A stretch of DNA of 64,000 bases from Escherichia coli (GTDB lineage: Bacteria; Pseudomonadota; Gammaproteobacteria; Enterobacterales; Enterobacteriaceae), in the NCBI RefSeq assembly GCF_003334355.1, contig NZ_QOWP01000016.1, one strand, 5' to 3'. A program made the translations under genes and the position numbers. Positions 63,658-63,932 of the stretch are shown here, one piece after another (positions within the stretch are counted from its first letter, which is position 1; each line of letters opens with the position of its first letter). Below the pieces are notes generated by a model. That model was given only the letters and a program-made list of their open reading frames with translations, did no database searches and was not told the DNA's origin.

Positions 63658-63734
63658 GCATCCGTAGCTCAGCTGGATAGAGTACTCGGCTACGAACCGA
63701 GCGGTCGGAGGTTCGAATCCTCCCGGATGCACCA
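63658..63734 (+). tRNA. argV: tRNA-Arg (anticodon ACG)
   Basis: 77-nt GCATCCGTAGCTCAGCTGGATAGAGTACTCGGCTACGAACCGAGCGGTCGGAGGTTCGAATCCTCCCGGATGCACCA; assignment to argV versus a paralogous copy is by position only. Confidence 0.9.
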
Positions 63735-63932
63735 TATTCTACGTACTTTCAGCGATGAAGGTATGGAAGAGGTGGCGGTAATAACCGCAGGCACCAGGGA
63801 GGATAACGTTGCTTTAGCAACGGCCCGAAGGGCGAGCCGCAAGGCGAGTAATCCTCCAGGATGCACCATCTCTTACTTGATACGGCTTTAGTAGCGGTAT
63901 CAAAAAATCTGCAGTAAAGTAAGTTTCCCGAT

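Follow-up and report, generated by a model that had tools for sequence, protein, structure and literature searches.

[quoted passage not shown] According to the historical account given in the same paper, they were first seen at tyrT by Egan and Landy in 1978, and Rudd listed 22 of them at ten K-12 loci in 1999 (PMC8144298). TLRs have no known function, an early claim for rtT having later been withdrawn, and a strain without all 22 of them exists (PMC8144298). Known since 1978 and conserved across the Gammaproteobacteria, the family represents a small, old puzzle. [quoted passage not shown] The sRNAs RrA, RrB and RrF are located between the terminators T1 and T2 of rrnA, rrnB and rrnD and follow the same logic, with a tail that repeats the 3′ end of the 5S rRNA located upstream. 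Direct repeats of a tRNA 3′ end that start in the T-loop are also found in the attL/attR duplications of integrated elements.

The locus studied here is located at the end of a window of 64,000 nt from Escherichia coli (contig NZ_QOWP01000016.1 of assembly GCF_003334355.1) and turned out to be the csrA-serV-argV-argY region, in + orientation. A promoter-like site of the serV-argV operon (TTGACT, 16 nt, TAATAT; 63472-63499, +) was found as a consensus match only, in a scan of the identical K-12 locus that was mapped to the window, and is followed by the genes of tRNA-Ser(GCU), serV (63562-63654, +; 56.8 bits on the Rfam tRNA model), and tRNA-Arg(ACG), argV (63658-63734, +; 67.1 bits), both called by ARAGORN and present in the K-12 annotation. 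A second tRNA-Arg(ACG) gene, argY (63933-64000, +), is cut by the window end and was assigned from its 100% direct repeat of argV, a 3′-truncated Rfam tRNA match and the K-12 annotation. Coding potential at the locus is restricted to trivial ORFs that overlap the tRNAs; there is no tpr-like ORF.

A preliminary description had drawn attention to a copy of the tRNA-Arg 3′ end, with one mismatch, about 115 bp downstream of the gene, and both our search and the shuffled controls bear this out. The last 19 nt of argV (AATCCTCCCGGATGCACCA, 63716-63734, +) recur as AATCCTCCAGGATGCACCA at 63850-63868 (+), with 18 of the 19 positions identical, an A for C at 63858 as the sole mismatch and a gap of 115 nt between both copies, which is indeed far too small to hold an island. 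These are the only two matches of the argV 19-mer in the 64 kb at up to three mismatches, compared with a mean of 0.01 in shuffled sequences. The downstream copy comprises the AA of the T-loop, the 3′ strand of the T-stem, the 3′ strand of the acceptor stem and ACCA, and the direct repeat continues for 8 nt past the CCA (63716-63742 vs 63850-63876, 27 nt at 85% identity).

This copy is very probably the 3′ tail of the TLR raV and not the scar of an integration event. raV is 134 nt long (63735-63868, +), begins with the base right after argV and lies between argV and argY; it is delineated by its K-12 paralogues, the Rfam RtT model, its predicted fold and the published list of TLRs. The K-12 arg cluster contains three such modules of 133-135 nt, after argV, argZ and argQ, all of which start with TATTCT and finish with an exact copy, ATCCTCCCGGATGCACCA (19/19), of the tRNA end. 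The association with the tandem tRNA-Arg array that had been noted from the window thus holds, and because the three K-12 modules end alike, the 19-mer belongs to the end of a 134-nt unit that is itself repeated and is no isolated fragment. All features by which a TLR is recognized are present: the position in a tRNA operon directly 3′ of a tRNA gene, the identity of its end to the upstream tRNA (18/19 in the window, 19/19 in K-12), and a core that is common to the tyrT, Lys, Pro, Arg(CCG), Ser and 5S-linked modules. The supplementary strain table of PMC8144298 moreover includes the element in the K-12 set of 22 TLRs, with the deletion of 'argY/Z/Q, raQ/Z/V' at 2815672-2816445 as part of it. 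A literature search by gene name returned nothing specific to the argV-argY spacer, and the TLR papers surfaced via tyrT.

Compared with the K-12 repeats raV, raZ and raQ, the module in the window has the same place after the tRNA, the same 18-19-bp tail and the same core; nothing essential differs except for one private substitution at 63858 in a normally exact repeat. This is also the single base at which it deviates from the K-12 argV module (C in K-12, A in the window). The feature is already known, and the interpretation as an integration site is wrong. For the window itself, which holds a catalogued repeat with a private SNP, the result matters little.

With the tyrT repeats, raV shares the core AACGTTGC-loop-GCAACGGCCCGAAGGG..GAGTAATCC, which is followed by the tRNA-specific tail, and in both types the tail has a complementary strand further upstream (GGGGAAGGAT/ATCCTTCCCC in Tyr, GGGAGGAT/ATCCTCCC in Arg). 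On the RtT model raV scores 34.4 bits (E = 2e-5) when the spacer is searched alone and 32.5 bits in the window, below the Rfam gathering score of 45 for RF00391, similar to two of the arg-cluster modules in K-12 (29.2 and 31.0 bits), whereas the tyrT copies reach 133-137 bits. The Arg(ACG) modules represent a short form without about 40 nt, the T-arm-like hairpin and the GAGCG..GCGAGA segment of RtT, and score 29-34 bits, in contrast to 55-137 bits for the Tyr, Lys, Pro and Arg(CCG) modules; the Lys, Pro and Arg-CCG modules (55-101 bits) pass the threshold of the model and the Arg-ACG modules do not. Also in contrast to tyrT, the arg-cluster modules have no ncRNA feature in the RefSeq records viewed and contain no tpr-like ORF. 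Since they are sub-threshold in Rfam and lack a RefSeq ncRNA annotation, Arg-type TLRs will continue to be flagged in genome scans as apparent scars of att sites. RrA, RrB and RrF resemble raV in the core CGTTGC-loop-GCAACG, in GCCCGAAGGG and in the variable hairpin, and differ in being 5S-linked and placed behind a terminator.

The RNA corresponding to raV is predicted to be highly structured, with a folding energy of -57.3 kcal/mol vs -37.1 for shuffled sequences (z = -6.3). The minimum free energy structure consists of two hairpins in the 5′ part (63738-63788, +; hairpins at 63738-63770 and 63775-63788) and a tRNA-like domain, in which the tRNA-end copy (63851-63864) is predicted to pair with the complementary strand GCACCAGGGAGGAT (63791-63804, +), also detected as an inverted repeat, and to enclose three hairpins. 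These hairpins form the conserved TLR core (63807-63845, +), common to the tyrT repeats and to other Gammaproteobacteria, and comprise CGTTGC-TTTA-GCAACG (63807-63822, +), GCCC-GAA-GGGC (63823-63833, +) and the variable hairpin GCC-GCAA-GGC (63836-63845, +). The terminal ACCA is unpaired when the 84-nt domain is folded alone, and the fold of the whole module frees only the last A. The same architecture is predicted for raV, raZ and raQ of K-12, with a weaker outer helix in raZ and raQ (-50 vs -60 kcal/mol), and the A at 63858 in the window removes one predicted G-C pair at a cost of 3 kcal/mol. The 5′ part (63738-63788) is specific to the arg cluster, and its first hairpin alone survives in the third spacer of O157:H7.

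We further explored this structure in an alignment of 17 Arg-type modules from 11 genera, in which 88% of the cells can pair, compared with 30-48% when the partners are slid against each other. Within the outer helix, 12 of the 14 positions pair in most of the 17 modules (78% of cells paired), with one compensatory change (G-C to A-U, in Hafnia) and two consistently mismatched positions. The variable core hairpin (hairpin 4; 63836-63845) shows compensatory changes at two pairs, one of which occurs as CG in 9, GC in 7 and AU in 1 of the modules, and keeps its position family-wide with many different stems. Because the search pattern itself demanded the two invariant core hairpins, their constancy across species is partly a matter of ascertainment and was given no weight. 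Ungapped complementarity of the module 5′ regions, compared across tRNA types, barely discriminates between their own 3′ strand (9.9-11 of 14) and the 3′ strands of other types (8.2-10.5), and is not counted in favour of the outer helix.

Between argV and argY, a consensus scan of the identical K-12 locus found no terminator-like site; the only one on the + strand is located about 240 nt past argQ. Together with the promoter-like site before serV, this places the arg modules inside a likely transcription unit, in which raV would be transcribed together with the serV-argVYZQ tRNAs. In such a transcript, the tRNA-end copy could pair with its upstream strand and form a coaxial mimic of acceptor and T-stem, with the three hairpins inside it and a single-stranded ACCA at its end. 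The tail of raV and the sequence following it would then offer the same surroundings for 3′ processing as a genuine tRNA end; RNase E might cut just downstream of the tail, followed by exonucleolytic trimming back to the helix, and the spacer would be released as a discrete RNA, leaving argY with a normal leader. This processing role, to which we assign about even chances, is extrapolated from the geometry of raV and from RrB, a 5S-linked TLR whose 3′ end has been mapped to 3 nt beyond the repeat, a position that the authors credit to RNase E (PMC8144298). The fallback offered in the preliminary description, a spacer feature that possibly acts as a processing signal, comes close to this literature proposal (PMC8144298). 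Overall, the element is very probably raV, and its most likely role is that of a spacer RNA that is co-transcribed and processed.

The distribution of the module among strains was assessed in 5,426 complete E. coli genomes, all of which contain the cluster region. In K-12 the order is serV, argV, 198 nt, argY, 62 nt, argZ, 198 nt, argQ, 281 nt, yqaB, where each 198-nt spacer is composed of a module of 134-135 nt and an ordinary spacer of about 62-64 nt, and the third module lies directly 3′ of argQ. The window has the same composition, with an ordinary inter-tRNA spacer of 64 nt (63869-63932, +) that is identical to the first spacer of O157:H7, in which it follows argV directly; the O157:H7 spacer is a precise loss of the 134 nt between the two direct repeats. 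The number of tRNA-Arg(ACG) genes in the cluster varies between 2 and 5 among complete genomes, with one strain carrying five, and the spacer sets seen were 198/62/198, 64/62/102, 197/63/63 and 198/62/198/198. In strain 50EVA, the annotated coordinates place yqaB 134 nt closer to the last tRNA-Arg than in K-12. The third spacer of the O157 type (O157:H7, locus L002, 3116-3217; also L128) is 102 nt long and contains only the first ~38 nt of the module with its 5′ hairpin, and neither the core nor the tRNA-end copy, representing either a deletion that was not bounded by direct repeats or an older state.

Within an evenly spaced sample of 30 matches, 20 covered the whole query and 9 were without the 134 nt, so roughly 30% of the sampled E. 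coli have no raV. A 60-nt probe from the 3′ part of the module gave a similar picture: it was found in 3,863 of the 5,426 genomes, leaving about 29% without a copy of the raV/raZ type. Nearly all module-bearing genomes (3,859 of 3,863) were 98.3% identical to the 60-mer of the window, which is consistent with one mismatch in 60 nt and an exact tRNA-end copy, the figure being an overall identity per genome. The A variant at 63858 was matched exactly in only 1 of the 5,426 genomes (NZ_CP104521.1, strain E5, from poultry), and the C-to-A change is a private SNP. The preliminary description had proposed a comparison across strains that would reveal either a repeat present in all E. coli or islands at the site in some of them; neither alternative fits, as the repeat is not universal, yet no island occurs in the loci inspected. 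The direct repeats formed by the ends of the tRNA and the TLR (19-27 bp) are a substrate for the precise loss or gain of the module and thereby account for its presence or absence among strains. They turn the serV-arg cluster into a hotspot of polymorphism, both in copy number and in spacers, relevant to the dosage of tRNA-Arg2 and to the assembly or typing of the region. Any function of raV must be non-essential, because roughly 30% of the sampled E. coli lack it and because strains that lack all 22 TLRs (PMC8144298), or argYZQ and the TLRs of the arg cluster, were constructed and put to use; raV is dispensable in the laboratory.

A scan for the core pattern in one genome per species identified at least 120 loci, and those listed include Enterobacterales, Orbales, Pseudomonas, Stenotrophomonas, Marinobacter, Thioalkalivibrio and others. 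The core was located 40-130 nt 3′ of tRNA-Tyr (at least 37 loci), Lys (at least 34), Arg-ACG (at least 18), Pro-UGG (at least 10), and Pro-CGG, Arg-CCG and Ser (at least 2 each), and most of the tRNA-linked cores listed end in an 18/18 copy of the 3′ end of their own upstream tRNA. For 89 unique modules of other species, linked to six tRNA types, identity to the upstream tRNA was 97-100% over the last 18 nt, whereas position 19 showed 39% and positions 20-23 about 0%; as modules were kept only at a match of at least 16/18, the plateau is partly built in, which does not apply to the sharp drop. The tRNA-end copies track lineage-specific variants of the tRNAs.

The same core is also present 3′ of 5S rRNA genes, ending in a copy of the 5S 3′ end, AACTGCCAGGCATCAAAT (loci L014, L030, L032, L033, L053, L060, L086 and L100), and in a 5S-linked form with an intervening terminator (L020, L048, L050, L070 and L077); the latter probably matches the rrnB T1-T2 interval of many cloning vectors. 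In L020 a weak rnk_pseudo match was noticed on the opposite strand, beside the module. Cores without a tRNA on the same strand within 700 nt upstream occur as 1-3 tandem units of about 75 nt in Pseudomonas (L043, L044, L074 and L095-L099), Alloalcanivorax (L047 and L106), Marinobacter (L067), Stenotrophomonas (L012, L027 and L115) and Pectobacterium (L051). Such a unit consists of an A-run, a small hairpin, a T-run, the core and a variable hairpin such as GGCnGCCAGGGATGGCnGCC, and a Rfam search of these Pseudomonas-type repeats gave no match at E < 0.01.

The rival explanation that survives best, though we consider it rather unlikely, is that the module with its tRNA-end copy is a neutral or selfish by-product of unequal crossing-over, whose identity to the tRNA is kept by recombination or gene conversion and which has no function as RNA. 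The pronounced polymorphism of the cluster, with 2-5 tRNA-Arg genes and the module variably present at three positions, would be expected in this case, as would the lack of a raV/raZ-type copy in about 29% of genomes, the degraded helices of raZ and raQ, and the absence of a known TLR function in combination with a strain that lives without all 22 (PMC8144298). This reading is opposed by the retention of the core in Enterobacterales, Orbales and other Gammaproteobacteria, where it follows six or more types of tRNA as well as 5S rRNA, by the variable hairpin 4, which changes its sequence and keeps its pairing, and by the whole module folding far better than shuffled sequences. Furthermore, the sharp identity boundary at 18-19 nt in all types would be hard to produce by gene conversion with little flanking homology.

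A further possibility, more speculative and in our judgement improbable, concerns the origin of the family: the ancestor of TLRs may have been a structured element, about 65 nt in length, that inserts 18-19 nt from the 3′ ends of stable-RNA gene copies, i.e., in the T-loop in the case of tRNAs. Its core would be a module spread through the Gammaproteobacteria that also exists without tRNAs, as the tandem repeats of roughly 75 nt, and raV RNA might be a CCA-ended mimic of the acceptor/T minihelix with an independent role, such as that of a decoy for enzymes acting on tRNA 3′ ends. The idea derives from cores found in the T-loop of pseudo-tRNA-Tyr genes and from TLRs of Yersinia and Serratia that keep tRNA positions 23-59. 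Upstream of tyrT in Citrobacter, Kosakonia and Phytobacter (L009, a Citrobacter locus, - strand, oriented 9226-9460; L021, L081 and L088), there is a decayed tRNA-Tyr pseudogene with a complete 5′ part, a mutated anticodon loop and the core exactly in the T-loop (..AAGGTTCGA / core / ATCCTT..), which suggests that TLRs began as insertions into copies of tRNA genes. In the long-form Arg(ACG) TLRs of Yersinia nurmii (L080) and Serratia grimesii (L093), tRNA positions 23-59 or 36-59 directly precede the core, a tRNA copy that spans the anticodon arm to the T-loop and is lost in the E. coli form. The link between TLR cores, pseudo-tRNAs interrupted in the T-loop and tRNA-free repeats provides a concrete starting point on the origin of TLRs.

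That an excised raV acts as a regulatory sRNA or sponge, along the lines of what has been suggested for the 5S-linked TLRs (Hfq, CsrA) or for the 3′ external transcribed spacer of leuZ, appears highly unlikely. RrA, RrB and RrF of the same family do bind Hfq and CsrA in vitro (PMC8144298), raV contains several GGA motifs, as read from its sequence, and the operon is located directly downstream of csrA. However, most of these GGA motifs fall into predicted stems, and all 19 tRNA-linked TLRs scored below 0.01 in a predictor of CsrB/C-type RNAs and are thus predicted to lack CsrA binding, RrA, RrB and RrF being called unique in this respect (PMC8144298). A CsrA/Hfq-type regulatory RNA is hence unsupported for the tRNA-linked TLRs, and we retain raV as a processed spacer as the preferred reading.

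The T-loop is a typical crossover position of integrases that target tRNA genes. The 19-nt copy, which begins in the T-loop, therefore has a geometry that suits integration, and relatives in Yersinia, Serratia and Citrobacter with a longer direct tRNA copy or a whole pseudo-tRNA have the core exactly there; nevertheless, it is extremely unlikely that the copy is the displaced tRNA 3′ end (an attR-type remnant) of a phage or island at argV with the 115 nt as its leftover, since the cluster extends from csrA to yqaB, free of integrases and islands, in nine E. coli loci that differ in architecture, the same core occurs 3′ of 5S rRNA genes and in tandem arrays, and the module shows structural covariation that is unexpected of a decaying remnant. 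A search of a phage collection with the tRNA and its trailer returned no near-identical partial copy of this tRNA that could represent attP, and the TLR core was present in only 3 of 2.9 million viral contigs, with no tRNA nearby; neither an element at the site nor a matching attP was thus found in the nine loci and the phage collection. A recent integration scar is essentially excluded by these loci and the phage and viral searches. Unlike attL/attR duplications, raV is accompanied by no mobile element, integrase or attP, and its 115 nt are conserved, structured sequence that is also found behind 5S rRNA. The footprint of site-specific integration, which the preliminary description brought up for the duplicated 3′ end and itself considered less likely, is therefore not upheld, and the integrase to be looked for beyond the window end is missing from the nine E. 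coli loci inspected. Its preferred suggestions, an old excision scar or a simple relic of tandem duplication, give way to raV as well, as the copy is the tail of a conserved, structured module of 134 nt.

BLAST matches that end at the tRNA or TLR ends were considered as insertion points and rejected; they reflect differences in the copy number of modules and tRNAs or an effect of piece joining. An antisense 'tRNA-Arg(tcg)' called by ARAGORN at 63678-63749 (-), overlapping argV, and sub-threshold Rfam matches to 'Plastid-ycf2' and 'Plastid-psbI-rps4' on the - strand of argV (63658-63732) and serV look like artefacts of the near-palindromic tRNA arms. In the Lys/Pro arrays (L022, L023, L025, L026, L035-L040 and L110), the units open with a terminator-like hairpin and a T-run after the tRNA end or its copy, so that the TLR bodies lie behind a terminator, as in rrnB, and differ in this from the arg-cluster modules. 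Finally, in the lys-val tRNA cluster of E. coli (L058, -), RtT matches at 2266-2433 and 2489-2655 score 55-61 bits, above the threshold; they span a tRNA-Lys and a short TLR, the real tRNA satisfying the T-arm-like 5′ part of the model.
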